A DNA stretch of 47,428 nucleotides from NCBI GenBank assembly GCA_021399395.1, contig JAAFKJ010000005.1:1-47428 (forward strand), read 5' to 3'. The notes under the pieces are model-generated. The model searched no databases, was not told the origin of the DNA, and saw only the letters and a list, made by a program, of their open reading frames with translations. The translations under genes were made by a program, and so were the position numbers. Positions 11,348-43,590 of the stretch are shown here, one piece after another. Position 1 is the stretch's first letter; the number at the start of each line of letters is the position of its first letter. The DNA comes from Candidatus Heimdallarchaeota archaeon (lineage in GTDB: Archaea; Asgardarchaeota; Heimdallarchaeia; Heimdallarchaeales; Heimdallarchaeaceae).

Positions 11348-11361
11348 AGAAGGATGAACAA

Positions 11362-16106: not shown

Positions 16107-17557
16107 AAATTACAAACATAAATCCTAATGTTAAAGCTTTAACGCATTGGCATACCTTTCTTGGTTCACTAGGTTCTGATTCTCCCCTGAAAAAGCAAAT
16201 ATCAGACCTATCTAAGGAAAATAGCTTACCAGAAGATTTTATGAACCCACAAAAAAGCATGAGCGATCTAGAAAAACAAATGAAACAACAATTGAAAGAA
16301 GAAGACAAAGAAGACAAAGAAGGTAAGAAGCAAAAGCAAAAACAAAAACAGAAGCTGAAAAAAGGTAAGGAAGAGGTGATTTCACCAATCAAAGAAATGT
16401 TAATGAAATCAAAAACCATAATGGAGCTTTTTGCGCCTAGTCAACAAAAAAATATTAAAGCTAAAGACATGCACGAATGGAAAACTACAACGAAGAAATG
16501 GGAAGAAATGATTCGCAAAGATGCTGACAAAGCTGATATGGAAGCCGGTATGGAAGCTGGAATGGAAGCTGGAATGGAGGTTCCAGGGGGAGGTGACGGT
16601 GGTAGTGGAGAAGCTGGTGGAGTGACTGGTGGACATGGTATAGGTGCAGGTTTTACGATAAATAAGGATGATATTGAAGATGTTTTCTACCTTCTAGAAG
16701 CTAAGATGGTTAAGAAAATGAGTGTAATGGAACTTCTCAAAGATGAAGAATTGCATAAAACAATTGACCCTTCTATACACCTAGTAGAAGAGCTTCTCTA
16801 TCACAAACATTCACTAAGCGGGGTTTCTTTAATCCATGCAAAAGCTCTCATAAAAAAATATGTGGATAAAGTTGCAGAAGTGTTAAAACAGAAAGTCGAA
16901 AAAGCTATTCGCAAAATTCCTAATCCTGATATTGTACCTAAAAAAGTTTTCAGAAATCTCAATCTTAAGAGAACTATTTGGAAAAACCTACCAAACTGGG
17001 ATGACGAAGAGAAGCGATTGTTCGTTGACAAACTAATATATTACAGAGCAGGAAAGAAAACTATTCCAACCAAAATCATCATAGTCGTAGATCAAAGTGG
17101 TTCAATGGTTGATGCCATGGTTCAAACAGTGATTTTAGCTTCCATTTTCTCTGGTTTACCAAACACCGATATCGAACTATTTGCTTTTGATACTAGAGTT
17201 GTTAATCTTACCAAATACGTTAAGGATCCTCTTGAAGCTCTTATGCAAACCAGATTAGGTGGTGGTACACATATCAACGTTGCCCTTCTTGAAGCAAGAA
17301 AAGGTATCACTGACCCCAAAAACACTGCTTTAGTTTTAATAACCGATTATTATGAAGGCGGAAGTGAAGAAACTATGTTTAACACAATAATGTCTATGAA
17401 AGATGATGGGGTGAAAATCATTTCTTTAGCAAGTATGAATAAAAGAGGTTATGTTTCCGTTAACACTCGATTTGTTAGTAGACTAAAAAAACATGAAATT
17501 GAGACTGTACAAGGAAACTTTGATCAATTAATTGACAAACTTAAGAAATTCCTCTAA
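16103..17557 (+). CDS. VWA domain protein (CoxE/YehP-like)
   Basis: MIDAS motif DQSGSM, GGGT, LITDYYEG. Confidence 0.9.
   Translation: MKITNINPNVKALTHWHTFLGSLGSDSPLKKQISDLSKENSLPEDFMNPQKSMSDLEKQMKQQLKEEDKEDKEGKKQKQKQKQKLKKGKEEVISPIKEMLMKSKTIMELFAPSQQKNIKAKDMHEWKTTTKKWEEMIRKDADKADMEAGMEAGMEAGMEVPGGGDGGSGEAGGVTGGHGIGAGFTINKDDIEDVFYLLEAKMVKKMSVMELLKDEELHKTIDPSIHLVEELLYHKHSLSGVSLIHAKALIKKYVDKVAEVLKQKVEKAIRKIPNPDIVPKKVFRNLNLKRTIWKNLPNWDDEEKRLFVDKLIYYRAGKKTIPTKIIIVVDQSGSMVDAMVQTVILASIFSGLPNTDIELFAFDTRVVNLTKYVKDPLEALMQTRLGGGTHINVALLEARKGITDPKNTALVLITDYYEGGSEETMFNTIMSMKDDGVKIISLASMNKRGYVSVNTRFVSRLKKHEIETVQGNFDQLIDKLKKFL
16532..16579 (+). repeat. 12-bp coding tandem repeat (AGME, 4 copies)
   Basis: ADMEAGMEAGMEAGME followed by a Gly-rich linker. 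Confidence 0.7.
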
Positions 17558-30088: not shown

Positions 30089-31105
30089 TTATTCTCTTCT
30101 CTTTCTAAAAATAGAAACAATGGGCATAGATAATAATATGATTAAGACATATGGAAAACTCGCTTGATTTGTATCAGCTGGTATAGATTCATATATGTCA
30201 ACAGGGCTTGTAAGTGGGTACATATCACAACAATCTATAGAACCTTCAATTGAGTAGTTACCGGTTCCCAAGTAATCACTCCAAAAGTTTCCTTGAGCTA
30301 ACACTGCATTGAACCAAAAATTGCCATTGCCTGTACTTGCATCTCTTCCTTGTGAGACACCTGCACCCTCAAAGTTATCTACGAAATTATTATGATATAC
30401 GAAATTATTGGTGCTGTCTTGTATAAACTCTAAACCATACTCACCGTTTAACTCGAAATGGTTCATATAAATAACACTGTCTGATGTAGAAGAGGCTGCT
30501 ATTCCTTTGTAACCATTTTCTCTAAATATGTTCTTAGTGATATTAAGATTAGATGAAGCATAGATCGCTAAACCTGATTGTGGATTATTTCGAATAGTAT
30601 TATTAGTGACAAGTAAATCAGAGCAGTTCTCTATAGTAAAACCTACTGCATAAACTGTATTTTCTATTATGTTACCAGAGATTATTAAACCACTTGATTC
30701 CTTCACACCTATCCCATCATGTTTATTTGCATAACAATAGTTATCCATTATTTGACCTGTACCAGGTGTAACATCTTCTACAAGAATACCGTAAAAAGAA
30801 CTAGTTATTTCACATCCTTGAATTATGAAATGTTTCGTAGTGTTCATAACATAGATTCCTTCATTGTTTATATCTGATGAAGCTATGTCGTAGTTTTCTA
30901 TACGATAAGGATCTTCAGCTGTTCCAGAACCAGGAAATCCAAGGGTGATAAAATCATTATCTGAAAAAACCTCTATAGAATCACTAGTTACAAGAGCAGA
31001 TGTATTTATGTTTGTATTTAGGTTGTTAGTGGAATATAGTAGAAAAACTAAACTGATGACAATCACTGAATACAAATTTAGCATTCGTCTCTTCATTCTA
31101 TTCAC
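30089..31105 (-). CDS. secreted parallel beta-helix (NosD/CASH) protein with C-terminal anchor
   Basis: FPGSGTAEDPYRIE, IxxN repeats, GNFWSDY..D.YPL, TM+basic tail. Confidence 0.85.
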   Translation of the reverse strand: MNRMKRRMLNLYSVIVISLVFLLYSTNNLNTNINTSALVTSDSIEVFSDNDFITLGFPGSGTAEDPYRIENYDIASSDINNEGIYVMNTTKHFIIQGCEITSSFYGILVEDVTPGTGQIMDNYCYANKHDGIGVKESSGLIISGNIIENTVYAVGFTIENCSDLLVTNNTIRNNPQSGLAIYASSNLNITKNIFRENGYKGIAASSTSDSVIYMNHFELNGEYGLEFIQDSTNNFVYHNNFVDNFEGAGVSQGRDASTGNGNFWFNAVLAQGNFWSDYLGTGNYSIEGSIDCCDMYPLTSPVDIYESIPADTNQASFPYVLIILLSMPIVSIFRKRRE

Positions 31106-31384
31106 CTAAACTCTAAAATCCTCTGCTTGAAAGATACCCAAAGGATAAATTCCTTCTGTTGGAAGATTAGGAACTTTATCAATAATCTTCTTAATAGAAT
31201 CTATATCTTTGGCATCCCATTGACAAAGGATTTTCTTTATATGTCCATTTTCATTTAATATTGCCCAACTCTTTACCCAATAAGCATCAGCATTGCAATG
31301 AGCTTTAACAGCTTGTCCTATTGGAGTCGCTGCCTCTACTGGTGCTGGTTCGGGAAAAGGATGGATTGCTAGATATTTAGTCAT
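31106..31384 (-). CDS. DUF4242 (SCO4226-like) small protein
   Basis: MTKYLAIH...WVKSW...KILCQWDA pattern; GAGGT SD before ATG 31384. Confidence 0.7.
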   Translation of the reverse strand: MTKYLAIHPFPEPAPVEAATPIGQAVKAHCNADAYWVKSWAILNENGHIKKILCQWDAKDIDSIKKIIDKVPNLPTEGIYPLGIFQAEDFRV

Positions 31385-31427
31385 TATTTTTACCTCGATA
31401 GTCATGCATCAAAATCCAACACACATA

Positions 31428-31471
31428 TGTGTCCTATTTTGACACACCTATATGCATCTAAACAAGTCACA
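31428..31471. promoter_or_regulatory. two TGT-N13-ACA palindromes (31428-31446 exact; 31453-31471 TGC variant)
   Basis: Second site abuts the minus-strand TATA (TTTTATA 31472-31478). Confidence 0.6.
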
Positions 31472-31523
31472 TATAAAAACATTTGTACAAAAAGGAGAAA
31501 TAAGAGAGTAAAAAAGGAAAAAA

Positions 31524-31934
31524 CTATGCTTCTTCTTTTTCAACCACGTGTTCAAGACGTTTAGAATCTGCGTTTACCATAGTAGGCTTAACAATCGGTG
31601 AAGGAAGCGGAAGATCAGCTAAACCAAGATCCTGCATTAGTTGTATATATCGCTCAGTCAAAAAGAATTGTTTTAATTTATACCAAGAGGTTTGGACAAG
31701 TATTGGAAAGTCTTTGAATTCCAATGCACATTCATGCTTATTCATAGATTCTTTTTTGTTAATTTCCCCACACTTAAAACAGTATTTCCATCTTGCGGGA
31801 TGAATATAGAGTTCATCACTACCGGTCATATATGCCCTCAAGCCATCTGTAAAAGAAGTCTTCCATAGATTCTGAGCAAAATTAGCTGCAATTGCACGTA
31901 TTTTGGATTTTTCAGAATCTAATATGTCTGGCAA
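31524..31934 (-). CDS. unrecognised CxxC-HxC protein family, paralog 2
   Basis: (TTG)PDILDSEK...ARWKYCFKCG...HEC...TSWYKLKQFFL; start moved from 32078 by alignment and promoter position. Confidence 0.85.
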   Translation of the reverse strand: MPDILDSEKSKIRAIAANFAQNLWKTSFTDGLRAYMTGSDELYIHPARWKYCFKCGEINKKESMNKHECALEFKDFPILVQTSWYKLKQFFLTERYIQLMQDLGLADLPLPSPIVKPTMVNADSKRLEHVVEKEEA

Positions 31935-31950
31935 GAGAATCACTTTCTTA

Positions 31951-31971
31951 TGTGTACTAGTTTCCGACACA
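31951..31971. promoter_or_regulatory. TGT-N13-ACA palindrome abutting the TATA of paralog 2
   Basis: TGTGTACTAGTTTCCGACACA followed by TATAAAA. Confidence 0.7.
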
Positions 31972-32105
31972 TATAAAAATATTATGGAATTATAAGAAAA
32001 TATTATTTTTAGACCCGACACAAATTGATTTTTTTGCTCATAAAATAAACTATAAAAGGATTTCATCTCATCGTTCATTACTTATAGGGAAATCTCTACA
32101 TGTAA

Positions 32106-32525
32106 ATGAACAAAAAAGACATGGTGATGAAGATGACTGCAAAAACTATGGAGTTAGAATTTGACCAAGAGGAAATCAGCAAAGCTGAAGAAGATTACAA
32201 GAAACTTCAGTTAGATCCCGCTCAGCAGGAAATGGTCGACTCCATAACAAGAATCACAAATGACTTGGTTTCATTGCCTGAAACAGCTGTTAAGAGCTTT
32301 ACATGGAAAGTAATGAATAATTGGCAAAAAATGCGAAGAATTACGATAGCTGAGTTAGAAAACCGTCCCCAAAGAGATAGAATAGATGCAGCTAAAGAGA
32401 TTATCAAACAAGCAAAGAAAGTCTATATAGAACTTCTTTCAGAAGCTACTCCTGAGCAAAGAGAGATGCTAGAGAAGAAATTTGATGGCATTTTAAAACA
32501 GAATTCGGATCTTCTGAAAAATTAG
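32106..32525 (+). CDS. hypothetical alpha-helical protein
   Basis: 139 aa charged helical ORF, divergent from paralog 2. Confidence 0.75.
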   Translation: MNKKDMVMKMTAKTMELEFDQEEISKAEEDYKKLQLDPAQQEMVDSITRITNDLVSLPETAVKSFTWKVMNNWQKMRRITIAELENRPQRDRIDAAKEIIKQAKKVYIELLSEATPEQREMLEKKFDGILKQNSDLLKN

Positions 32526-32591
32526 AATTTCATAAATGTTTCTCAAAAAGATTAATATCTACCTTTTGAATTTATCAGCTAGGTTATTCAG

Positions 32592-34052
32592 ATGGTTAAT
32601 TCAGAGGAGATAATTCAGTGGATAGATTTTAACCAAAAGTGGTTTATAGAGATTGCAGACAAAATCTGGGAATTTGCTGAAATTCGTTTTGAAGAAGTAA
32701 AATCTGCTAAATTACAGATATCAGTTCTAGAAGAGGAAGGGTTTGAAATTTCTAAGGGATTAGCAGATATGCCTACAGCTTTTATTGGAGCATATGGTGA
32801 AGAAGGACCAATTGTGGCAATTCTAGGAGAGTATGATGCTTTATCAGGGCTAAGTCAAAAAGCTGGAAAGTTAGAAAAAGAGTCTATTGAAAAAGATGGT
32901 CATGGTCATGGTTGTGGCCATAATCTTCTTGGAGTAGGTAGTCTGGCAGCAGCTATAGCAGTGAAGCGTTACCTCGAAGCTAATAAGGTCCCGGGAATTG
33001 TTCGTTATTATGGTTGTCCTGGAGAAGAAGGAGGATCTGGCAAAACCTACATGGTTAGAGAAGGGTTGTTTGAGGATGTACATATTGCTTTGTGTTGGCA
33101 TCCATTCAGTACAAATTTCTTATTCAATATTTCGAGTTTAGCAAATATTCAAGCTTATTTCCGTTTTACAGGTAGAAGTGCTCATGCAGCAGGGGCACCC
33201 CATCAAGGTAGATCAGCTTTAGATGCAGTAGAATTAATGAATGTAGGAACAAATTATCTCCGAGAACACATTATTACACAAGCAAGATTACATTATGCAG
33301 TCACCAATACGGGTGGAAATGCACCAAATGTAGTTCAAGCTAATGCAGAAGTTCTTTATTTGATTAGAGCACCCGAAATGCCTCAAGCTCAGGAAATTTA
33401 TGAAAGAGTAATTAAAATTGCTAAAGGAGCTGCTCTAATGACCGAGACTGAAGTAGAAGTTGTTTTTGACAAGGCATCTTCCAATCTAATTCCCAATAAT
33501 GTCATAGGTAATGTGCTATATGAAAGACTTCAGGAAGTAGGTGTACCAGAGTATACTGAAAAAGAATTGGAATGGGGAAGAAAGCTTCAAGAAACATTTG
33601 GAGAGGGAGAACCAGAAGAAGTAACTAATTTTAAAAATTTCGAAAAAGAATTAGGAACAGACATAATTGACAAGATGAGAAAATGTGTCATGTTTGATAC
33701 AATTTTCCCCAACACACTCCCTGAATTTACTCTACCAGGGTCTACAGATGTTGGTGATGTGAGTTGGGTAGTACCTACATCTCAGATTGGAACAGCGAGT
33801 ATGGTAATAGGTACACCGGGTCATTCTTGGCAAGAAGTAACTCAAAGTGCAATGAGTATAGGTCACAAAGGAATGATACTAGCAGCTAAAGTATTAGCTC
33901 TTGTAGCTCTAGATTTTATAGAAAAACCTGAACTTATATTTGAAGCTAAAGAAGAACTGGAGAAAAGATTAGGTTCCAAAGAGTATGAATCGCCTATTGC
34001 TCCTGAAATAAAACCCAATGTTCCTGAATGGGTTTTTGATTCTATGGATTAG
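32592..34052 (+). CDS. abgB: M20 amidohydrolase, p-aminobenzoyl-glutamate hydrolase subunit B-like
   Basis: LGEYDAL, GHGCGHNLLG, CPGEEGG, WHP, GSTDVGDVSW. Confidence 0.88.
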   Translation: MVNSEEIIQWIDFNQKWFIEIADKIWEFAEIRFEEVKSAKLQISVLEEEGFEISKGLADMPTAFIGAYGEEGPIVAILGEYDALSGLSQKAGKLEKESIEKDGHGHGCGHNLLGVGSLAAAIAVKRYLEANKVPGIVRYYGCPGEEGGSGKTYMVREGLFEDVHIALCWHPFSTNFLFNISSLANIQAYFRFTGRSAHAAGAPHQGRSALDAVELMNVGTNYLREHIITQARLHYAVTNTGGNAPNVVQANAEVLYLIRAPEMPQAQEIYERVIKIAKGAALMTETEVEVVFDKASSNLIPNNVIGNVLYERLQEVGVPEYTEKELEWGRKLQETFGEGEPEEVTNFKNFEKELGTDIIDKMRKCVMFDTIFPNTLPEFTLPGSTDVGDVSWVVPTSQIGTASMVIGTPGHSWQEVTQSAMSIGHKGMILAAKVLALVALDFIEKPELIFEAKEELEKRLGSKEYESPIAPEIKPNVPEWVFDSMD

Positions 34053-34117
34053 AGTTAGGAGTTTTTGTAATTTACTAACACTAATAATAGAAAGATTGGT
34101 AATGTAACAAGATAGAT

Positions 34118-34306
34118 ATGAATTCTAAGGAACTGAAAACATGTTGTGGTGGAGAACTTCCTGCTAAGAAAGTTTCAACAGTCTATAAAAACAAAAAATT
34201 ATATTTCTGTGATACACCTTGTCTAGATCTTTTCAATAAAGATCCTGAAAGATTCCTCGGTTCTACTCATTTCAGATTGAATTTTGAACAGCTGGAAGAC
34301 GCTTGA
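34118..34306 (+). CDS. YHS/TRASH domain small protein
   Basis: TCCGG...YKNKKLYFCDTPCLDLFNKDPERF. Confidence 0.8.
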   Translation: MNSKELKTCCGGELPAKKVSTVYKNKKLYFCDTPCLDLFNKDPERFLGSTHFRLNFEQLEDA

Positions 34307-34358
34307 AGACAGTTGAATCTTAATAAAGTTTATGTAGAAGATACCTACAGAGACTTCT

Positions 34359-35216
34359 ATGGGTAATTTTAACTCAGATTTATTCTTTGGGATACTGATT
34401 GGTTTAATTGCTTATATCTTGCTATATATTGGGAAGGGCATACAGAAATATGCAATTACTGGTCTGCAAACTGATAAAACTCTCAAAAGTAAACATTCTG
34501 GAGTTTGGATTATTGGAACAGTTCTAACTGTTTCGTTTATGGGATTGCAGTGGGTTGCATTAGCTGTTTTTCATGCTAATGTTAATATTATTGCGCCATT
34601 TGAAGGAGTGGGTCTAATAAGTCTATTAATTTTCTCATTCTTTGTTCTAAAAGAGAAATTGAATAAGTGGGAGTTGGGAGGAACACTTCTGATAATCACA
34701 GGCACTATAGTGATAACAGTGTTCTATGGAGAAGCAACAGAATTACTCTACTCAGATTTTAATTTGGTTTTCCTTCTAATTATTTTAGGTGCCTTTATTG
34801 TTCCTATTGGAATCCTATCTTATTTTGCTTTTCGTAAACCCTCTAAATTAAAGGGAATTCTTCTAGGTTTATCAGCTGGATCATTTATGGCATTTCAAAC
34901 AATTTCAAAAAGAATCACAGATATTCCTGAGCTTGCTCTGGTTTTTACTTTTGTGACTTTTGCGTTAGCAGCTCTAACATTAGGATACACACAGTTTGCG
35001 TTTACTATGGCAAAAGTTAACATAGTAGTTCTTAGTTTTGCTTCAGTTAGTATAATTTTAACATCAGTTCTAGGTTATTTTGCAATTAATGAAAGTATCT
35101 TACCTGCTCAAATTGGCGGAATAGGGTGTATTATAGCAGGCATTATTCTTATGAACATATTTCAAAAAGATGAAGAATTGATGGAAGAAGAAAAAGAAGG
35201 TCAAAATACTTCATAA
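34359..35216 (+). CDS. DMT/EamA-like membrane transporter
   Basis: About 9 TMs; FFVLKEKL and FAINESI repeat-half motifs. Confidence 0.75.
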   Translation: MGNFNSDLFFGILIGLIAYILLYIGKGIQKYAITGLQTDKTLKSKHSGVWIIGTVLTVSFMGLQWVALAVFHANVNIIAPFEGVGLISLLIFSFFVLKEKLNKWELGGTLLIITGTIVITVFYGEATELLYSDFNLVFLLIILGAFIVPIGILSYFAFRKPSKLKGILLGLSAGSFMAFQTISKRITDIPELALVFTFVTFALAALTLGYTQFAFTMAKVNIVVLSFASVSIILTSVLGYFAINESILPAQIGGIGCIIAGIILMNIFQKDEELMEEEKEGQNTS

Positions 35217-36487
35217 TCTATTGCAGAATGAGCTAATTGTGTTATTCCTCTTAGCACTGAATGGTAGGCTACAATAATAGCGAAACAGAATAGAAATACT
35301 ACTGACCAAACACAAATTGTAATGATACGTCGTATTTTCTCCTTCTTAGTTATTTCTCCACCATAGAGTTTTGAGAGCTGATACAGGATTCCATTTAGAG
35401 AGATTAACTCCAGGAAGACTGCATTAATATAAAATGCGCCTTTAACTGTTGATTTCCCATATTGCCAAACAATCTTTCCTTCTCTGTTTACTTCTAAAAC
35501 AACACCCGCATAATCTCCAGAAATAAGGATGTTACCATTATCCAACATATCAGATTCATAGGGGATTAAAACATTCTTCCTATATTGCCAGAGAATCTCC
35601 TTTGATGTTTTATTAATCTCAATTATTCTGTTATTGAAACAATCAGTTATTAGAAGTCTATCTTCAGATAATTCATCAGCATCTCGAGGCCATCGAAGCC
35701 CTTCATCATACTGCCAAACTATCTGTTTTGTTGTCCTATTAATTTCAACTATTCGATCACCCAGAGAATCAGCGATGATAATATTTCCATTGCTTAGATA
35801 ATCAGGATTATGTTGTTTGCTTACCATAGACGCATTTCGAAAATCACCATACCACCAGACAATGTTATCAGGATTATTTTCTGGACCCAAAATCTCTGCA
35901 GTATAATTCACTTCTACAACTAAATCAAAATTCCTTAAAGAAATCAAACAAGCATCCCATGTACTGTATTGTCTGAAATCAACATCATTTACATGTGTAA
36001 AGTCATATACTGTCGGATTATTATAATAATGATCGGCACCCCAGTCTGGATTTACCTCTGTCCAGTTGATCTTTTTAGGTTCCCAGCTCCAAATTATGTT
36101 TGTATTTGGGTAGTCTATTTCTATAACCCTATCATAGTTAGTATCTGCAACAAGCAAGTGTCCAGAAGGTATCTCTTCTACTTCATGTGGTGTCCCTAGC
36201 CCTATTACCTCCCAGACTACGTTCCCCTCTTGATTCACCTCTATAATACGATGTTTCTTATTATTTGGATCAAGCTCCTCTTGTTCAGTATACCTACCAA
36301 TATGTGCAAGCATTTGTGCAAATGAAGTTGTACAAATTAAGGTGTTACCATTGGCTTTCCTATCTACATCGTGGGGAGCTTCAATTAATCTAGCTCTAGA
36401 ATAGGTTAGAAAAAAGGTTAAGTTAGTGATGATCATTAGAAGAAGTAGTGAACCAAGAATCTTCAATCTGTGTTTATACTTAATCAT
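35201..36487 (-). CDS. membrane-anchored beta-propeller, arylsulfotransferase (ASST)-like
   Basis: Repeated IIEV...G.IVW blades, DFTHVNDVD, QHNPD; terminal TMs. Confidence 0.75.
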   Translation of the reverse strand: MIKYKHRLKILGSLLLLMIITNLTFFLTYSRARLIEAPHDVDRKANGNTLICTTSFAQMLAHIGRYTEQEELDPNNKKHRIIEVNQEGNVVWEVIGLGTPHEVEEIPSGHLLVADTNYDRVIEIDYPNTNIIWSWEPKKINWTEVNPDWGADHYYNNPTVYDFTHVNDVDFRQYSTWDACLISLRNFDLVVEVNYTAEILGPENNPDNIVWWYGDFRNASMVSKQHNPDYLSNGNIIIADSLGDRIVEINRTTKQIVWQYDEGLRWPRDADELSEDRLLITDCFNNRIIEINKTSKEILWQYRKNVLIPYESDMLDNGNILISGDYAGVVLEVNREGKIVWQYGKSTVKGAFYINAVFLELISLNGILYQLSKLYGGEITKKEKIRRIITICVWSVVFLFCFAIIVAYHSVLRGITQLAHSAIDYEVF

Positions 36488-36527
36488 AAATCAGACCAAA
36501 AGAAGATTAGATGAGTTCTTTTAAAAT

Positions 36528-37796
36528 TTATCCATAAATTGATGTATCTGCAATTGTTTCAGGATAATCCTCATCGTCTACTTCTTCTTTTCTCTTCTTT
36601 ATTTCCTTTGCAGCTGGTTGTTTTCTATACCTTTGCTTATCGTTTTCTCTTTCTTCCCTAGTAAGATAGAATCTACGAATATCTTTCTTCATGAACATTT
36701 CAATACGTCTTATCATGTTCATTTCTTCATGATCAACAAGCGATATGGCCATTCCAGTTCTCTCCATCCTCGAAGTTCTACCAATTCTATGAACATAATT
36801 CTCGGGATTACCCACTGGCAAATCATAATTGAAGATATGTGAAACATGAGGAATATCTAAACCTCTAGCAGCGACGTCGGTCGCAATTAAACAGGTTATT
36901 TTCCTTTTCCTAAAATCACTCATTGCAATCTCTCGTTGTCTTTGAGACATGTCTCCCTGTAAAAGTCCAACTTTGAGATCTACTCTTTTATCTTTAACCA
37001 TTCTTTTATTCAGGTTGTCTCCCCATCGTTTAGTATTTACAAAAACAATACAAGACTTAGGTTTCTCTCGCTGAAGCAGTCTAATAAATGAGTTATACTT
37101 CTGCTTAGTGTCACTAACTTCATAGTAATATTGTTTACATGAAGAGACAGTTATATCATCACGGCTGACATCAATCTCAACTATATTCTCGTCCAGACTA
37201 TAATCCATCATGATGTTCTTTACTTCTGGCAACATTGTAGCAGAAAAAAGAAGCAGTCTAGGATAAACGTTTTTCATTGCACCAAACAGTATAAAGTCTA
37301 CATCAGGAAGGAATCCCATATCGAGCATTCTATCTGCTTCATCCAGAACTGCAAATTTAACATCTCTGAAGGTTATTGCATTACGATTGAATAAGTCAAT
37401 CAATCTCCCAGGTGTAGCCACAACTATCTGTGCACCGTCTTTAATTTTTTCAATCTGTCTGTTTATAGAAACACCTCCATAAACTTCAACAGCTTTTAAT
37501 CCCACATTTCTACCAAGTTTGGAAATAACATGATATACTTGTTTGCATAATTCTCTAGTAGGTACTAGTATAAGAGCTTGTACTTTTCTTAAGGAAGGAT
37601 CGAGAAATTCTACAATAGGAATTGAGAACGCTAATGTTTTCCCAGTTCCAGTTTTAGCTTGTGCCAAAATATGTGTATTTTCGCCCTTCAAAATTTCTGG
37701 TATTGCTTTTTCTTGAATATCTGTTGGGGTATGTATCCCCATTTCATCCAAAGATTTCTTAATTCCATCTCGGATGTTGTAATCGTTAAATTTCAT
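36528..37796 (-). CDS. DEAD-box RNA helicase with acidic tail
   Basis: AKTGTGKT, PTRELC, LDEAD, SAT, HRIGRTSR; close paralog of 17657-19003. Confidence 0.95.
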   Translation of the reverse strand: MKFNDYNIRDGIKKSLDEMGIHTPTDIQEKAIPEILKGENTHILAQAKTGTGKTLAFSIPIVEFLDPSLRKVQALILVPTRELCKQVYHVISKLGRNVGLKAVEVYGGVSINRQIEKIKDGAQIVVATPGRLIDLFNRNAITFRDVKFAVLDEADRMLDMGFLPDVDFILFGAMKNVYPRLLLFSATMLPEVKNIMMDYSLDENIVEIDVSRDDITVSSCKQYYYEVSDTKQKYNSFIRLLQREKPKSCIVFVNTKRWGDNLNKRMVKDKRVDLKVGLLQGDMSQRQREIAMSDFRKRKITCLIATDVAARGLDIPHVSHIFNYDLPVGNPENYVHRIGRTSRMERTGMAISLVDHEEMNMIRRIEMFMKKDIRRFYLTREERENDKQRYRKQPAAKEIKKRKEEVDDEDYPETIADTSIYG

Positions 37797-37896
37797 ACGT
37801 ATCAGTTGCTTTTTTGTAATAGCTAAGTTGTATTGAGCAGTTGCTAATTCTTAACTTGCCTTAAATTGTTGAACAAAATTGCGTTTTTCTTGTGTT

Positions 37897-37941
37897 TAAT
37901 CTTCCTCAACTTTGAGCTAATTTCTCTGTATTGTTTTAAAA
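37897..37941 (-). promoter_or_regulatory. TATA box plus conserved 15-nt leader motif of DEAD-box gene 2
   Basis: Minus strand TTTTAAA-N23-AGTTGAGGAAGATTA. Confidence 0.75.
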
Positions 37942-37976
37942 TGCTTTGTTTTTGCGACTTGATAAGATTTTCAGGT

Positions 37977-38345
37977 TTAGGTATCATTACAATGGTCTAT
38001 ACGCATGTTATCCTTATGATTCACACCTAGTTCTTCAAGAACTTGGATATAACCAGATTCTAAGAAGAAGTCTTTAAGTTTGAACCACGATGTTGAAACT
38101 AAAACTTGAACATTATGAGAAACTAATGTGGGACAGATATGATTTGGTTTATTGAATTCTTCTGGTAATCCTATTCTTCCACATATCAAACAATATTTCC
38201 ATCTTGCAGATCTCTTGTACAAGCTGTTAAAAGTGAAATGATATAATTGAGACCCGTTTTTGAAACTCAATTTTGAAAGAACACCACTAAAACACTTAGC
38301 TAATATCTTTATGTCGTTTTTTTCCTTATAGGATATATCTGGCAT
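37977..38345 (-). CDS. unrecognised CxxC-HxC protein family, paralog 3
   Basis: MPDI...ARWKYCLICG...HIC...TSWFKLKDFFL. Confidence 0.85.
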   Translation of the reverse strand: MPDISYKEKNDIKILAKCFSGVLSKLSFKNGSQLYHFTFNSLYKRSARWKYCLICGRIGLPEEFNKPNHICPTLVSHNVQVLVSTSWFKLKDFFLESGYIQVLEELGVNHKDNMRIDHCNDT

Positions 38346-38371
38346 TCTGGAAGACTCTCAGTTCCACACTA

Positions 38372-38390
38372 TGTACCTAAAAACAACACA
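38372..38390. promoter_or_regulatory. TGT-N13-ACA palindrome next to the TATA of paralog 3
   Basis: TGTACCTAAAAACAACACA then ATATAAA at 38393-38399. Confidence 0.6.
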
Positions 38391-38444
38391 AGATATAAAT
38401 GTTATGTGTGAAATTATCACTATATAAAAAAAAGAAATACTAAG

Positions 38445-38915
38445 TTAAGCTGTGCTATCTTGCTTAACTCCTTCAGATAAGCGCTCTGCTTTACTTTTAA
38501 CAGGAATTTTCTCAACAATAGGCTGTTGATAAGGAATATCCTTTACGCCTGCTTTTTCAAGAGCTTTGGCATACTTTTCTGTCATAAAAAATGCTTTCAA
38601 TTTATACCAGGAAGTAGTAATAAGTACTGGAAAGTGATTAACACCCATTGTGCATTTGTGAACTCTATCATGAGCTTTCTTTCTGTTAGAAGTACCCATT
38701 TTCTTTAATTCATGTTCATCCAACATATCTTCAGTGGATTCAATTTCGCCACATTTCAAACAGTACTTCCATCTTGCTGATCGGATATACAATGATTCAT
38801 ATGTATCAGAATAAATAAGCAATCCCTCGTTAAATGGAGAAACTATAAGTTTCATGGCGTATTTTTTTGCAAGGGAACGAATGAATTGTTGTTCTGCATT
38901 TGATATTTTTGGCAT
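38445..38915 (-). CDS. unrecognised CxxC-HxC protein family, paralog 4
   Basis: MPKI...ARWKYCLKCG...HKC...TSWYKLKAFFM; GGTGA SD before ATG 38915. Confidence 0.85.
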   Translation of the reverse strand: MPKISNAEQQFIRSLAKKYAMKLIVSPFNEGLLIYSDTYESLYIRSARWKYCLKCGEIESTEDMLDEHELKKMGTSNRKKAHDRVHKCTMGVNHFPVLITTSWYKLKAFFMTEKYAKALEKAGVKDIPYQQPIVEKIPVKSKAERLSEGVKQDSTA

Positions 38916-38987
38916 AAGTTTCACCAGTTATGTGTATATGAAGCATAACATATTAAATATATTTGCTTTTGTATTTAACAAAATAAA

Positions 38988-39135
38988 GTCACAGTGAAAT
39001 CATGGGTACATATTGATTCTGTAAAACTTATATTGGCACAATTGCAGTGTGTGTAGGAAGGTCATATATCTAGATGGAGAAGAGATTTACAAAGCAGGTA
39101 AATGGTTGATACCTAGAATAAAAGAAAAAACTTGA
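38988..39135 (+). pseudogene. possible frameshifted remnant of an M29 aminopeptidase C-terminus
   Basis: VTVKSWVHIDSVK then, after a frame change, IYLDGEEIYKAGKWLI; resembles the HxD...IxxDGxxIxxxGxxxI ending of M29 peptidases. Confidence 0.3.
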
Positions 39136-39160
39136 TTCGAAGAGTATTTACTCTTTTTTC

Positions 39161-39199
39161 AAAAAAAAAAAAAAAAGATGAAAGGACTAAGTCTCATCG
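39161..39199 (-). terminator. hairpin plus long oligo-T terminator after the 47 aa membrane micro-protein
   Basis: Minus strand GATGAGAC-TTA-GTC-CTT-TCATC followed by a run of about 16 T. Confidence 0.65.
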
Positions 39200-39206
39200 T
39201 CATTTT

Positions 39207-39350
39207 TTAATTAGATAACATCGAAAGAGAAAGAACCCCTGCAATAATTATGACAGACAGAGATACTATGTAAACTACTAATCTCCAAGTAATTGAAAGG
39301 GTTTTTTCAATTCTAAAACGTCTAATAAATTTTCTTTCATTTCCAATCAT
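39207..39350 (-). CDS. 47 aa single-TM micro-protein (below ORF-track cutoff)
   Basis: MIGNERKFIRRFRIEKTLSITWRLVVYIVSLSVIIIAGVLSLSMLSN; GAGGTG SD; terminator downstream. Confidence 0.75.
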   Translation of the reverse strand: MIGNERKFIRRFRIEKTLSITWRLVVYIVSLSVIIIAGVLSLSMLSN

Positions 39351-39404
39351 ATTTTACACCTCATTTCGAAAAATGTTTAAGTCTCATTTAAGATCAATCA
39401 GGAG

Positions 39405-39565
39405 TATCATCGTGGAGAAGAGGAAAGGATCAGGAAACAGTTAGCGACACACAAGCTCTGGGTTGGTTAGAGTTTGTTGTTTCCTGATCCTCAGCAGATG
39501 GTGAGCTCTGCAGGTTTGTCTGTTCAGCAAGATACAAACAGCGTGAGTTCTTGGATGTGATGATA
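39405..39565 (+). ncRNA. candidate ~160 nt structured RNA
   Basis: Closing stem TATCATC/GATGATA; perfect 14-bp stem 39426-39439/39478-39491 with an inner stem; two further hairpins; mismatches are G-U on the + strand. Confidence 0.55.
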
Positions 39566-39614
39566 ATCGTAAAATAATAAATGAGAGGAAAAGTGAGGAT
39601 TCACTTCTCGTCAC

Positions 39615-39761
39615 TTATATAACTATTCTACTGAATGCAGGAGCTAAACCAACTACGATACCGACTGCGAACAATGGTAATGCATATCTTAACGTTCTCC
39701 AAAGATAGATGATTGGTCGAGACACTTGGATCTTAGATAGGAATTTTGGCAGACTTAACAC
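39615..39761 (-). CDS. 48 aa hydrophobic micro-protein (below cutoff)
   Basis: (GTG)LSLPKFLSKIQVSRPIIYLWRTLRYALPLFAVGIVVGLAPAFSRIVI; GGAGGTG SD; hairpin downstream. Confidence 0.7.
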   Translation of the reverse strand: MLSLPKFLSKIQVSRPIIYLWRTLRYALPLFAVGIVVGLAPAFSRIVI

Positions 39762-39809
39762 ACTTTACACCTCCGTTTCATTTTTAGTAAGGGGGATTGA
39801 AGACCCAGC

Positions 39810-39959
39810 TTATCCTGCGAGAGGAATTCGCTGAGTTAGCAATCTTTCAGAGCGTGCTTTTGCTCTAAGGGTGCGTCGAGCTCTTTTTAACTCGCTTAAC
39901 TCCTTTTGGAGGTCCCTGATCTCTTGGTCCAGTAATCTGGAAAGTTCATGTTCGTTCAT
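39810..39959 (-). CDS. 49 aa coiled-coil/basic micro-protein, copy A
   Basis: MNEHELSRLLDQEIRDLQKELSELKRARRTLRAKARSERLLTQRIPLAG; GGTGA SD; paralog at 41013-41159. Confidence 0.85.
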   Translation of the reverse strand: MNEHELSRLLDQEIRDLQKELSELKRARRTLRAKARSERLLTQRIPLAG

Positions 39960-39985
39960 TTTTTTCACCGTTTGAGTTTTTCTTA

Positions 39986-40055
39986 TGTCTGAACAAATCC
40001 GACATCCTATATAAAGGCATTTTTAGAAGTCAGAATTGTCGGTTTTACTCCGACA
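39986..40055. promoter_or_regulatory. two TGTC-N11-GACA palindromes (39986-40004, 40037-40055) flanking the TATA of micro-operon A
   Basis: ATGTCTGAACAAATCCGACAT and TTGTCGGTTTTACTCCGACAT; TATATAAA at about 40008-40016. Confidence 0.75.
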
Positions 40056-40139
40056 TGTAAAAAGTGTGAAAAATGAGTGAAACACACGCGTTAGTGCAAA
40101 ATATTGCACATACGAGAAGAATTATAATGAGTAAAAGAA

Positions 40140-40156
40140 TAGGCAAGTTTTGCCTA
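40140..40156. promoter_or_regulatory. GGCAA-N3-TTGCC palindrome
   Basis: TAGGCAAGTTTTGCCTA. Confidence 0.65.
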
Positions 40157-40240
40157 AGATGTCGGATTGTAACTACAATCTTGATCCAAAAATCATTTAA
40201 AAAATGGGAAGTTTCATGAAAAAATAGGGAGAAAAAGAGA

Positions 40241-40669
40241 TTATTTTTCTGTTACCAAAGCATCGGTTACTTGTATTTCTTTAACTGAGGTAGGTACTTC
40301 TTCAGTTGTTTCACTAGGCACAGTAACAATCTCGCGTATGTCTGAGTCTACACCAATAGCTTCTAGTGCTTTTGCATACCGTTGTGTCAAAAAGAAGTCT
40401 TCTAATTCCTTCCAGCTTGTTGTTACTAATACTTGAAAGCTTTTGAAATCAAGAGCACAAGAATGGTTTTCCTTCTTTAATTTTGTTGCAGCGTCTATTT
40501 CGCCACATTTTAAACATAGCCGAATTCGAGAGGATCCGTCATATAATTCATTAATAGTATTTTGATAAAGTGATAAACCTGAATCAAACGGAGCATTGCG
40601 TAAATCAAGTGCAAAATGCTTCGCTCTGTAGCGTATCCTTTGTTTTTTAGCGGCGGTCATGTCTGTCAT
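40241..40669 (-). CDS. unrecognised CxxC-HxC protein family, paralog 5
   Basis: MTDM...SRIRLCLKCG...HSC...TSWKELEDFFL. Confidence 0.85.
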   Translation of the reverse strand: MTDMTAAKKQRIRYRAKHFALDLRNAPFDSGLSLYQNTINELYDGSSRIRLCLKCGEIDAATKLKKENHSCALDFKSFQVLVTTSWKELEDFFLTQRYAKALEAIGVDSDIREIVTVPSETTEEVPTSVKEIQVTDALVTEK

Positions 40670-40680
40670 ATAACATCTCT

Positions 40681-40703
40681 CATGTAGTATCTAATCATAC
40701 ATG
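40681..40703. promoter_or_regulatory. TGT-N13-ACA palindrome abutting the TATA of paralog 5
   Basis: CATGTA-N11-TACATG then TTTAAAA. Confidence 0.75.
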
Positions 40704-40723
40704 TTTAAAAGTGTTCGGCAATT

Positions 40724-40736
40724 GGCAAAAATTGCC
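40724..40736. promoter_or_regulatory. GGCAA-N3-TTGCC palindrome
   Basis: GGCAAAAATTGCC, 13 nt upstream of the paralog 5 TATA. Confidence 0.65.
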
Positions 40737-40818
40737 TTTGTCGTTAAATCAAAGTTTTCTAAGACTAGGAGAATAATAAATTACCAATATTCTGGTAAAA
40801 AAAAGAAAAATCAAATTT

Positions 40819-40971
40819 CTAAAGAAAGAAACTTGATAAAGCAGTTAAGGCAATCAACCCTAACACCATTAACAAACTAAAAAGAAATGCATATCCCATA
40901 ACAATCAACGCTTTCTCTTTCATATTTTCGATTTTCATTTGTCTTCTTACATTTACTACTTTGTTTGCCAT
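40819..40971 (-). CDS. 50 aa single-TM micro-protein (below cutoff)
   Basis: MANKVVNVRRQMKIENMKEKALIVMGYAFLFSLLMVLGLIALTALSSFFL; GGAGGTG SD; T-rich tract after the stop. Confidence 0.75.
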   Translation of the reverse strand: MANKVVNVRRQMKIENMKEKALIVMGYAFLFSLLMVLGLIALTALSSFFL

Positions 40972-41012
40972 ATTAGACACCTCCACGTGTATGACGTTTT
41001 ACTAGAACCAGG

Positions 41013-41159
41013 TTATCCCTGGGAGGGGATTTGCCCGATTGAGTACCTAGAAAGAGCTTTTGCTCTTCCGGTGCGACGAGCTCTTTTGAGCTGATTCAAC
41101 TCCTTTTGGAGTGCTTTTATTTTCTTGTTCAACAGGTTATTTAATTCGTGTTCATTCAA
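41013..41159 (-). CDS. 48 aa coiled-coil/basic micro-protein, copy B
   Basis: (TTG)NEHELNNLLNKKIKALQKELNQLKRARRTGRAKALSRYSIGQIPSQG; AGGTGA SD; overlaps the upstream stop. Confidence 0.85.
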   Translation of the reverse strand: MNEHELNNLLNKKIKALQKELNQLKRARRTGRAKALSRYSIGQIPSQG

Positions 41160-41355
41160 TTCTATCACCTTTGTTTTTGCAATACTTTCTTAAGTCAAGT
41201 TTCGAAAACCTGATAGTGGTATCCATGCGATAATCGTAATGTGGTCGATCATTTCGTCCAGGATACTTAGATGCTAGAGTTTTTGTGAGCCGATTGAGAT
41301 CTTCATAAAGCCTCTTTAGCTCGCGGTCCAACAGTTTTTGTATTTCCATCGTCAT
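41152..41355 (-). CDS. 67 aa small protein with N-terminal coiled coil similar to micro-proteins A/B
   Basis: EIQKLLDRELKRLYEDLNRL versus ELSRLLDQEIRDLQKELSEL; AGGTGG SD. Confidence 0.7.
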   Translation of the reverse strand: MTMEIQKLLDRELKRLYEDLNRLTKTLASKYPGRNDRPHYDYRMDTTIRFSKLDLRKYCKNKGDRIE

Positions 41356-41381
41356 TTTTTACCACCTTGGTTTTCTTGTCG

Positions 41382-41451
41382 TATGTCATATGTTTGATGA
41401 CATATATAAAACCCTTTGTTTTTGCGCATATGTCCTCTATATGACGACATA
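41382..41451. promoter_or_regulatory. two TGTC-N11-GACA palindromes (41384-41402, 41431-41449) at the micro-operon B promoter
   Basis: TATGTCAT-N7-ATGACATA and ATATGTC-N11-GACATAT, each followed by a TATAAA-like tract. Confidence 0.8.
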
Positions 41452-41544
41452 TAAAAAAAGAAGAAAATTGACGGCAAAAAAGGTTTTAGAGGGATATAAA
41501 CCCATTTGTATAAGGTTTGTAATAGAAAATTACTTAAAGATAGA

Positions 41545-41557
41545 GGCAATTATTGCC
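41545..41557. promoter_or_regulatory. GGCAA-N3-TTGCC palindrome
   Basis: GGCAATTATTGCC between divergent promoters. Confidence 0.65.
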
Positions 41558-41630
41558 CACATATGTCATCAAATACATGCAAATATAAACCTTTAGGCAA
41601 CAGATGTCTGAAAGCATAGATATAAATATA

Positions 41631-41649
41631 TGTAATCAAATAGATTACA
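41631..41649. promoter_or_regulatory. TGT-N13-ACA palindrome just downstream of the TATA of paralog 6
   Basis: TATAAATA then TGTAATC-AAATA-GATTACA. Confidence 0.75.
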
Positions 41650-41672
41650 CAAGAAAAAAAGGAGTGTATAAT

Positions 41673-42119
41673 ATGCCTGATGTAAAAGATGCAGAAAAAA
41701 CACAAATCAAGTATATAGCTAAAAGATATGTTCAAGATTTAGCTAACGCTCCAATGAGTGAGGGACTTACTATCTATAGTAAAACAATAGATAAAATTTT
41801 TCTACGATCTGCAAGATGGAAAATATGTCTTCAATGTGGAATCATCAATAAAAGAGAAATTCTCAGTGAGAGTAATCATAGTTGTTCATCCACGTTAGGT
41901 AATTTACCTGTGATTATTCAGACAAGTTGGGTAAAATTGAAAGAGTTTTTCCTTACTGATGAATATATCAAATTACTTGATTCAGCTGGAATAGAGCCCA
42001 TTTCTGTCCGACCTACTCCCGTCATTACCACTGTTGAGGAATCAGCAGAAGTTCCCGCTGCAGTTCCAGAAAAAGCTTCTGTAAAAGCTGGTCGAGAAGG
42101 TTCTGATTCAGAGAGTTAG
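41673..42119 (+). CDS. unrecognised CxxC-HxC protein family, paralog 6
   Basis: MPDV...ARWKICLQCG...HSC...TSWVKLKEFFL; AGGAGTG SD before ATG 41673. Confidence 0.85.
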   Translation: MPDVKDAEKTQIKYIAKRYVQDLANAPMSEGLTIYSKTIDKIFLRSARWKICLQCGIINKREILSESNHSCSSTLGNLPVIIQTSWVKLKEFFLTDEYIKLLDSAGIEPISVRPTPVITTVEESAEVPAAVPEKASVKAGREGSDSES

Positions 42120-42172
42120 GACGCACATATTTTTTAGCTAAATTTATTAAATACCTTTGAATCTACTAAAAC

Positions 42173-43141
42173 ATGGCAGTTTTAAATAAGAAGAAAGTAT
42201 TCACGATAATCTTGAGTCTAATTTTCTGCTATTCTTTGATTATGACGGAGAATGTTGCATTTGCAGAAATTGAACAAACATCGAACCTCAGGTTTTCCAT
42301 GACAGAGTCTTTCCCCATATTCATTAATTCTAATGATGATTTTGTCGTCCTAGGTTTTTCAGGAAATGGATCTTCTTCAAACCCATACACTATCGAAAAC
42401 TTACGAGTCGTTTCAACAGGTGAATTAGATTCAGCTATTGTAGTGGGTGGTACAGATGTTCATTTTGTTATTCAAAATTGTGAAATAGTATCCAAACATA
42501 TCGGGATCTACATTCAAGATACAGTAGCTGTTGGAACTGCAAAGATAGTTAACAACACAATAACATGTAGTACCACCAATGGGGGAGGAATTGGAGTAGG
42601 TGCTGATCAAGTATTGATTGAAAATAACACCATCTCAGGATTTATGCAAGGGATTCATGTAAACTTAGCTGATGACACTACTATCAAAGGTAATAACATA
42701 TTGCTAAGTTATTATCAAGGGATCAATATACGTTATTCCAGTTTCAACACCATAACTGACAATGACATTCGCAACAGTAATCAACACGGACTAGCCATTG
42801 TTGGAGACACAAGTTCGTATAACTTGATTTACAATAACATCTTTGTTAATAATTCCAATAAACCAACTTATGAAATCGATGGTGGCGTCGTTACTGGAGA
42901 CACAGGCAGTCAAGGATATGATGGAGGAAGCAACAACCAATGGTATGAAACTTTACATCAACAAGGCAATTCATGGGATGATTATAATGGAGAAGGAAAC
43001 TATGATATAGATGGTTCTGCAGAATCTTTTGATCAATATCCACAGAAATACACTACTAACACAGATGAAAGTAATTTATTGTTTTTTGCAAGCATTCTAG
43101 CTATTGTTGGTTTAACAGCGCTGTTTATCAAAAGAAAATAG
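42173..43141 (+). CDS. secreted parallel beta-helix (NosD/CASH) protein with C-terminal anchor
   Basis: FSGNGSSSNPYTIE, IxxN repeats, GNSWDDY..DQYP, TM+basic tail. Confidence 0.85.
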   Translation: MAVLNKKKVFTIILSLIFCYSLIMTENVAFAEIEQTSNLRFSMTESFPIFINSNDDFVVLGFSGNGSSSNPYTIENLRVVSTGELDSAIVVGGTDVHFVIQNCEIVSKHIGIYIQDTVAVGTAKIVNNTITCSTTNGGGIGVGADQVLIENNTISGFMQGIHVNLADDTTIKGNNILLSYYQGINIRYSSFNTITDNDIRNSNQHGLAIVGDTSSYNLIYNNIFVNNSNKPTYEIDGGVVTGDTGSQGYDGGSNNQWYETLHQQGNSWDDYNGEGNYDIDGSAESFDQYPQKYTTNTDESNLLFFASILAIVGLTALFIKRK

Positions 43142-43457: not shown

Positions 43458-43590
43458 TATTTCTTTAAATATAGCTTCTAAATTTAAAGATATTGTACTG
43501 TAAAATGGATTCTTGCACAAGTAATTACTTTTTTATATATCTCCTATCACGCTTTTTTAGCATTTAAAATATATTTGGAGAGGTTCTTCA

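Follow-up and report, generated by a model that had tools for sequence, protein, structure and literature searches.

What controls the cluster of small genes between positions 31428 and 41649 of a contig from a Candidatus Heimdallarchaeota archaeon, and is the symmetric DNA element that recurs in front of them an operator? The window analysed here is the whole of that contig (C148, 47,428 bp), which belongs to a genome of 2.82 Mb in 201 contigs, with 34% G+C and a completeness of 81.8% (hereafter G000). The cluster comprises paralogs of a zinc-motif protein family, here called CCHC, two operons for micro-proteins of about 50 amino acids (aa), and a unit headed by a DUF4242 gene and including a NosD/beta-helix surface protein. 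As the original prediction had proposed, a position-fixed, dyad-symmetric promoter element, TGT-N13-ACA, is common to the CCHC paralogs, both micro-operons and the DUF4242/NosD unit. Our data indicate that this element of 19 to 21 bases is a genus-conserved control site at the promoters of about a dozen small genes, and that it is most likely the landing pad of a putative repressor excluding RNA polymerase.

In the window, TGT-N13-ACA occurs 24 times, against 13.6 ± 3.5 times in 100 dinucleotide shuffles, none of which reached 24 (maximum 21), and 10 of the 24 matches fall in the region 31428-41649. The same region carries 4 of the 18 TGTC-N11-GACA and 4 of the 71 ATGT-N13-ACAT matches found genome-wide. 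Matches abutting a TATA box number 37 among the 913 TGT-N13-ACA occurrences of the genome; 8 of these 37 lie in this 10.3-kb region (0.37% of the genome), which is an approximately 60-fold concentration and, by Poisson arithmetic, compares with an expectation of 0.14 (order of 1e-12). At spacings N9-N12 and N14-N17, TATA-abutting sites in the region number 0-2 each. Furthermore, the perfect TATA-abutting form, ATGT-N13-ACAT, occurs 11 times in the genome, and seven of these copies stand at promoters of the proposed regulon: four in the region, one at a second copy of the first micro-operon's promoter (contig C131), one at a seventh CCHC paralog, P7 (C42), and one at a small regulator gene (C150).

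TTTATA and TTTAAA are the most enriched hexamers upstream of genes in our rule-based gene model (2442 open reading frames, ORFs; 84% coverage), by 2.5-2.7-fold at -70 to -25 of the 1238 genes with free upstream space, and the assignment of TATA boxes is therefore reasonable. The element itself is not a generic promoter feature. Its intergenic density (0.264 per kb at N13) is no higher than that of spacings N9-N17 (0.27-0.34 per kb), and it follows a TATA-like 8-mer within 0-5 nucleotides (nt) in 17 of 7930 cases genome-wide. In the glutaredoxin promoter of the window (43458-43590), no site was found.

Read toward the gene, the promoters share one layout: a tttatata-type TATA box, 0-5 nt, the 19-bp palindrome, usually T(A/G), and then a leader of 11-75 nt, at the end of which a purine-rich ribosome-binding stretch precedes the start codon. 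The offset of 0-5 nt between TATA box and site holds at 11 promoters of G000. The exceptions are the site at 40037, which lies upstream of its TATA box, and those at 31453 and 41431, which form extra tandem promoters, each with its own TATA box; the former is the tandem upstream promoter of the DUF4242/NosD unit. Every site of the original prediction was found where it had been placed, and this holds for the TGC variant (31453) and the N14 variant (38931-38950) too. The sites (candidate operators) and their genes are as follows, in window coordinates.

30089..31405, minus strand: DUF4242/NosD target unit (Pfam PF14026, PF13229, PF05048)
30089-31105, minus strand: NosD/beta-helix surface protein of this unit (Pfam; PF13229 and PF05048 in the unit)
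31106-31405, minus strand: SCO4226-like/DUF4242 gene (PF14026, E 5.7e-6, under its cut-off)
31428..31446, minus strand: candidate operator D2, TGTGTC-N7-GACACA, directly 3' of the TATA-like CATATAGG (31447-31454) and 23 nt ahead of the DUF4242 gene
31453..31471, minus strand: candidate operator variant D1, with GCA in place of ACA in one arm (the TGC variant), abutting the TATA box TTTTTATA (31472-31479)
31524..31934, minus strand: CCHC paralog P1, start set at TTG (M-P-D-I-L) from the family alignment
31951..31971, minus strand: candidate operator of P1, two overlapping registers (31951/31953), abutting the TATA box (31972-31979)
37977..38345, minus strand: CCHC paralog P2
38372..38390, minus strand: candidate operator of P2, 1-2 nt past the TATA box (38392-38400)
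38445..38915, minus strand: CCHC paralog P3
38931..38950, minus strand: N14 variant of the candidate operator, at P3, abutting an A/T-rich TATA region (38951-38962)
39207..39959, minus strand: micro-operon M1, three small genes
39615-39761 and 39207-39350, minus strand: two single-pass membrane proteins of M1, about 47 aa each
39810-39959, minus strand: coiled-coil/basic protein of M1, 49 aa
39986..40004, minus strand: candidate operator O1 of M1, 3 nt past the TATA box (40008-40015), kept in relatives
40037..40055, no strand assigned: candidate operator O2 of M1, TGTCGG-N7-CCGACA, upstream of the TATA box
40241..40669, minus strand: CCHC paralog P4
40683..40701, minus strand: candidate operator of P4, 2 nt past the TATA box CTTTTAAA (40704-40711)
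40819..41355, minus strand: micro-operon M2, encoding a 67-aa protein, a 51-aa paralog of the M1 coiled-coil protein and a 50-55-aa membrane protein
41384..41402, minus strand: candidate operator of M2, abutting the TATA box (41403-41410)
41431..41449, minus strand: second candidate operator of M2, a tandem promoter with its own TATA box (41450-41459), 47 bp upstream of the first
41631..41649, plus strand: candidate operator of P5, abutting the TATA box (41619-41630)
41673..43141, plus strand: CCHC paralog P5 (41673-42119) and, after a 53-nt gap, a second NosD/beta-helix surface protein (42173-43141)

Is the element kept in related genomes? We analysed 216 kb of CCHC clusters out of 17 congeneric genomes, where TATA-abutting sites number 61 at N13 and 1-9 at the other spacings from N8 to N18, with the exception of N11, whose count of 20 is owed to overlapping TGTGT registers. 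Among all 64 trinucleotide palindromes, TGT ranks first in these clusters, with TTT behind it. Specifically, 25 of the 46 full-length CCHC genes of the relatives have a site of their own (20 with N13, 4 with N14 and 1 with N12), and a further 8 begin no more than 70 nt from the stop codon of a DUF4242 gene and therefore ride in the DUF4242 operon. By comparison, 6 of the 138 other genes with an upstream gap of their own carry a site, and five of these six encode the secreted protein at the head of the DUF4242 operon; numerous other sites stand in front of micro-ORFs skipped by the gene caller. Across genomes whose proteins are 35-60% identical, TGT/ACA, the A/T on either flank and the spacing N13 persist although the spacers have drifted apart. 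The original prediction had named two outcomes that would speak against a regulon, namely equal frequency of the motif in unrelated promoters and lack of conservation upstream of orthologues. Both were looked for and neither was found, the motif being rare in the former and kept in the latter; the idea of a regulon is therefore supported.

Turning to single promoters, orthologues of P3 also have sites with N12-N14, and the arms of the P4 site are near-identical to those at P7. At M1, the two sites O2 and O1 are 51 bp apart, centre to centre, and a relative (locus L003) also has a second site upstream; in loci of 12 relatives, the coiled-coil protein of M1 shows 53-86% identity, the micro-proteins being kept as proteins. 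As for the CCHC family, it was present in all 24 genomes of the genus surveyed and in 0 of 16 genomes from three other families of the order, and a profile search returned 23 clusters among 1.84 billion representatives. The DUF4242-linked CCHC subfamily occurs in 9 relatives and was not found in G000, which may reflect the 82% completeness of that genome.

The symmetry of the element extends beyond the TGT/ACA core. On 63 unique sites, with column shuffles as the expectation, the consensus of the cluster sites is tATGTa-N11-tACATa with an A/T-rich spacer. An A precedes TGT (position -1) in 53 of the 63 sites and a T follows ACA (position +20) in 47; the element is therefore better written as the 21-bp ATGT-N13-ACAT. 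Inside the spacer, positions 4 and 16 form complementary pairs in 29 of the 63 sites (17.5 expected), and positions 6 and 14 in 32 (15.9 expected), with independent promoter types keeping different symmetric pairs (G:C, C:G, A:T).

A second class of sites, with the consensus tgTGTGya-N7-trCACAca, has the same core, spacing and position as the cluster class. The two differ at position -1, where the cluster class has A instead of G, and at position 4, where it has A/C. On the profile of this TGTG class, cluster sites have a median score of -5.9, TGTG sites of +10.1 and the background of -12.8. Within the window, site D2 belongs to this class. Across 25 genomes of the genus, the strict pattern TGTGYR-N7-YRCACA was counted 113 times, against 13 in a reversed control; across 16 other genomes of the order, the count was 10, against a control of 13. 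All six strict sites of G000 are at promoters (C167:1727-1745, C193:828-916, C132:32129-32149, C82:2103-2121 and C150:6934-6952), and the genes concerned encode ferritin, thioredoxin and a TrmB-like protein, a disulfide-oxidoreductase-like protein, a secreted/membrane pair, and a MarR-like protein preceding nop5. Ferritin promoters carry a TGTG-type site at 20 of 20 genus loci and at 0 of 9 loci outside the genus. These strict sites look like a genus-specific redox/iron regulon, and a gene set made up of ferritin, thioredoxin, an oxidoreductase-like protein and regulators suggests a redox or metal stress response as the role of the system. The element of the window belongs to a genus-wide system that reaches beyond the original prediction, to the MarR-like, TrmB-like, ferritin and thioredoxin promoters on other contigs.

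Two genes of this second class encode candidate winged-helix regulators.

C150:6614-6892: MarR-like 92-aa winged-helix gene, directly upstream of nop5 and then fibrillarin
C193:910-1350: TrmB-like, Cys-rich 146-aa gene (Pfam PF01978, 36.5 bits against a cut-off of 25.6)

The AlphaFold2 (AF2) model of the 92-aa protein is a winged helix (pLDDT 87) with three helices, a wing and one C-terminal helix. Foldseek ranks MepR, MftR, MexR and ZitR as the best matches of this model (E 4e-4 to 4e-3, probability 1.0, TM 0.6-0.7), and a profile search of the PDB gave SarA and AdcR (E 3e-4 to 1e-3). Against Pfam, the protein itself matches no family at E 0.01 and misses the curated MarR threshold, HTH_12 being the best match (E 0.013), and Pfam MarR matches 11 of 18 aligned members (best E 1e-6). 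The gene lies next to nop5 in all 24 genus orthologues (76-100% identical), and in each of them the 130 nt before the gene contain 1-3 TGTG-N11-CACA sites, usually as an N12 copy upstream of the TATA box, one site abutting it downstream and another in tandem. TGTG-N11-CACA was found at 0 of 6 homologues from outside the genus (35-41% identical). The TrmB-like gene, whose product has a Cys-rich N-terminus, is divergent from the thioredoxin gene in G000 and most relatives; 20 of its 21 genus loci carry TGTG-type sites just past its own TATA box and, where the two genes are divergent, past that of thioredoxin. No orthologue was found outside the genus at E 1e-10.

The position, symmetry, enrichment and conservation of the sites, and the genes that carry them, are direct observations. 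We infer from these features that a dimeric, sequence-specific protein would sit on TGT-N13-ACA, past the TATA box and ahead of the transcription start; if transcription begins as far from the TATA box as is usual in archaea, the palindrome would reach from about -22 to about -4. TBP and TFB would still be able to occupy the TATA box, RNA polymerase would be shut out, and the genes would stay silent until the factor departs. Within one genus of the Heimdallarchaeaceae, the putative regulon would be small, comprising the CCHC paralogs, the two micro-operons and the DUF4242-headed unit with its surface beta-helix protein. It would represent one branch of the genus-wide TGT-N13-ACA system, the TGTG class (ferritin, thioredoxin, the oxidoreductase-like gene and the two winged-helix genes) being the other. 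Taken as a whole, this explanation, from dyad operators and a dimeric binder to a small regulon in a genus-wide system, appears to us probable.

Several observations weigh against this explanation. Under the strict rule, 13 of the 46 CCHC genes of the relatives are without a site, several of them having degenerate versions. In the window itself, the CCHC paralog P6 (20676-21116, minus strand) has a TATA-like box but no TGT-N13-ACA; the P6 orthologue of a relative (G013) does have a site (TGTAAC..GTACA), and the case looks, by this comparison, like a lineage-specific loss of the operator. Since the inner positions are heterogeneous and the cluster sites score negatively on the TGTG profile, one protein may not bind all the sites. 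The gene models and the TATA rule are crude regular expressions. Finally, orthologous promoters share descent and are not independent samples, and the site counts and covariation p-values therefore overstate independence.

Which protein, then, would bind? We place a winged-helix regulator encoded elsewhere in the genome and a protein outside the candidates named here side by side, both tentatively, with the CCHC paralogs close behind; the fold of the winged-helix candidates is suitable and they have sites at their own genes, yet these sites are of the sister class. The original prediction had one dimeric factor co-regulating all targets; the shared regulon holds, while a single factor is not established. 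By their inner bases, the sites divide into sub-classes.

A conventional regulator, MarR-like and/or TrmB-like, which controls its own gene through TGTG-N11-CACA and also represses the window cluster, is thus a tentative choice. Pointing to it are the core, spacing and placement shared between the sites at the regulator genes and those of the window, the TGTG type of D2, the MarR-type fold and the Pfam TrmB domain, the sites at both regulators' own promoters, and the genus-restricted occurrence of the class at ferritin. Furthermore, a Pfam search found no known DNA-binding domain among the window ORFs. Against it, the cluster sites differ at -1 and position 4 and score below zero on the TGTG profile, and their clade-specific, dyad-symmetric variants suggest more specificities than two proteins would give. 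With two regulator genes sharing one site type, at most one of them need bind. Lastly, the 92-aa protein appears from its model to lack the classical terminal dimerisation helices of MarR, and it misses the Pfam thresholds. Paralogs of this protein (45-55% identical) lie close to CCHC clusters in three relatives (L077, G004:C103; L078, G006:C47; L079, G021:C29), where they adjoin flavodoxin-like genes, with a DEAD-box helicase nearby in two cases. We dropped them as a link to these clusters, since their promoters have no motif and they precede flavodoxin-like genes; they probably belong to another small regulon.

That the CCHC paralogs are themselves new zinc-dependent DNA binders, each repressing its own promoter and the micro-operons nearby by way of a palindrome variant specific to it, seems doubtful. 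The operator variants do track the CCHC clades, with TGTA[TG]G..[AC]TACA in the P4/P7 clade, TGT[GA]TC..CTAGTACA in the P1 clade and N14 in the P3 clade, and the inner positions covary as a dyad. Sites at non-CCHC genes agree with the nearest CCHC site at 6.4 of 13 inner positions and with other CCHC sites of the same locus at 4.2 (8 and 12 comparisons, too few to tell a local from a global regulator). Counting only paralogs with a promoter of their own, 25 of 38 have a site in the relatives, and in G000 6 of the 7 paralogs have one. No other regulator gene was found in the cluster, a median pI of 8.8 makes the folded core mildly basic, and the family is restricted to the genus, as the motif is. 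However, clade-specific promoters and local likeness would also be expected from vertical inheritance and local duplication, and the paralogs behind DUF4242 are without an operator of their own. Moreover, the same core, spacing and position recur at ferritin, thioredoxin and winged-helix promoters far from CCHC genes, which means that binding by the CCHC proteins needs either a globally acting paralog or a coincidence between two families.

In fold and profile searches, the proteins themselves showed no likeness to any DNA-binding fold. Their model (pLDDT >90 over residues 1-110) starts with a pair of long helices, followed by a zinc knuckle of three strands and a pair of short helices; C52, C55 and G56 of the Cys/His zinc motif are invariant, H69 and C71 occur in at least 90% of 22 sequences, and most of the invariant residues are Cys/His, Trp or hydrophobic ones. 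Pfam gave no match, fold searches gave no informative relative (best Foldseek PDB E 2.5, best Z 5.2 in a wide VIA search), the best hit of a PDB profile search was an unrelated ArfGAP (E 0.033), and the best ESM Atlas value was 0.85, below lead level. A homodimer prediction with two copies of residues 1-112 carries no weight in either direction, one control having scored equally high. The earlier suggestion that the CCHC proteins are autoregulators was supported by no test. A two-tier arrangement, in which a lineage-private, zinc-dependent DNA-binding fold of the CCHC proteins would provide local switches, diversified so that each reads a separate variant of ATGT-N13-ACAT at its own and at adjacent micro-protein promoters, under a genus-wide redox/metal regulator using TGTG-N11-CACA, likewise strikes us as unlikely. 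For the DUF4242 gene, the idea of a NikR-type metal regulator, taken from the "nickel-responsive" name of the domain, was set aside, as nothing pointed to it.

Could the element be a special core promoter rather than a protein site, in which the basal machinery or an alternative TFB recognises a TATA-proximal TGT together with an ACA(T) initiator? The distal ACAT would lie 19-24 nt after the TATA box, about where the start would be expected, and the spacing relative to the TATA box is fixed. However, the offset from the TATA box varies, the inner positions covary as in a palindrome, the motif is not in the bulk of promoters, and copies occur upstream of TATA boxes and as head-to-tail tandems (40037, the MarR-like promoters, ferritin). 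A protein site is favoured over a TATA-plus-initiator composite because copies stand upstream of the TATA box, at 40037 and, with N12, in the MarR-like promoters; we regard the composite as very improbable. Passive inheritance of promoter modules copied with duplicated genes and having no present function, as P4 and P7 sharing nearly the whole site and the duplicated M1 promoter on C131 might suggest, is hardly credible given that unrelated genes (the micro-operons, DUF4242, the secreted protein, ferritin, thioredoxin, the two regulators) carry the element and that core, flanks and spacing persist while spacers diverge.

Alongside the preferred reading of the element as a repressor's operator, some further features were recorded. 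Inside M1, between genes two and three, the stretch 39400-39600 (minus strand) is G+C-rich and folds at -49.7 kcal/mol (z -5.35, 0 of 200 shuffles as good), with a long GGAUCAGGAAAC/GUUUCCUGAUCC hairpin; L003 has a comparable stretch, and an Rfam scan of the window gave no family for this stretch or any other. For 37900-42200, six DNA sequencing runs from two studies were listed as containing the sequence, and no RNA run. After the last M1 gene, a run of 16 A at 39160-39180 (poly-T on the gene strand) is likely an archaeal oligo-T terminator. A TGTG-N11-CACA site at 4542-4560 (TGTGTAAAAATAAGGCACA) lies in a long ORF-poor spacer (4104-5049), with no clear TATA box and about 27 nt ahead of a possible small hydrophobic ORF. 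Elsewhere in the window, 10130-17557 (plus strand) is a tight, overlapping operon for a MoxR-like AAA_5 ATPase, a DUF5682 protein, an unassigned 597-aa protein and a VWA/CoxE-like protein, a gene set that recurs beside the CCHC cluster of L079. Finally, a relaxed motif scan of the genome returned three mutually similar promoter-like elements (C164:10114, C164:19739 and C174:413), consisting of ttttata(a/g)a and A(T/C/G)GTATT...CTTACATtta, which may be a separate repeated promoter or the end of a mobile element.

Almost nothing is known of gene-specific regulation in Asgard archaea, as most resist culture. The present system offers a compact and exceptionally clean regulon, with an operator of 21 bp, around a dozen targeted promoters in each genome and evolutionary footprints across 25 genomes, together with three concrete candidate binders (MarR-like, TrmB-like and CCHC), and it can be tested in vitro without culture. 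If the orphan CCHC proteins were the binders, a new DNA-binding fold would be added. How such organisms handle oxygen is an active question. From its place at ferritin, thioredoxin and the oxidoreductase-like gene, the sister motif suggests a response to redox or metal stress, in a group that is regarded, as outlined in an Asgard review, as the closest to eukaryotes (PMC12993045).

How does this system compare with known ones? An operator between TATA box and start is an ordinary mechanism; the motif, the regulon and the candidate regulators are new, and we found no report of TGT-N13-ACA in the literature covered, which did not extend to subscription journals. In Pyrococcus, LrpA is reported as binding the downstream border of the TATA box and blocking recruitment of RNA polymerase while TBP and TFB stay, its own gene being repressed (PMC2995911), and the same Asgard review outlines this operator model for archaea in general terms (PMC12993045). 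By analogy with LrpA-type repressors, the sites described here border the TATA box on the gene side and would overlap the expected start, and the regulator genes are predicted to be autoregulated. The motif of the present system, TGT-N13-ACA, differs from theirs. The metal-dependent repressor mentioned together with LrpA we take to be Archaeoglobus MDR1.

MarR-family repressors bind as dimers to palindromes some 16-20 bp long, and autorepression is common among them. The 92-aa candidate shares, according to its model, the winged-helix fold of this family (MepR, MexR, MftR, ZitR/AdcR); unlike classical MarR proteins it has only 92 residues and, in the model, appears to lack the N- and C-terminal dimerisation helices. 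The protein encoded on C193 resembles TrmB and SurR-type thiol-redox regulators in its TrmB winged helix, Cys-rich N-terminus and divergent thioredoxin gene, and its type of site also marks ferritin and the disulfide-oxidoreductase-like gene, a gene content from which redox sensing may be proposed. The recognition motifs of TrmB/TrmBL1 and SurR differ from TGTG-N11-CACA.

The closing comparison concerns Brz of Halobacterium salinarum, reported as a small zinc-finger regulator of the adjacent gene bop, needed for high levels of the target mRNA (PMC2253796). The CCHC proteins are, like Brz, small proteins with a Cys/His zinc motif encoded beside the putative target genes. Unlike Brz, they are larger, with a folded core of about 110 aa and two long N-terminal helices, and whereas Brz, in that account, raises the mRNA levels of its target, the action proposed for the CCHC proteins would be repression.

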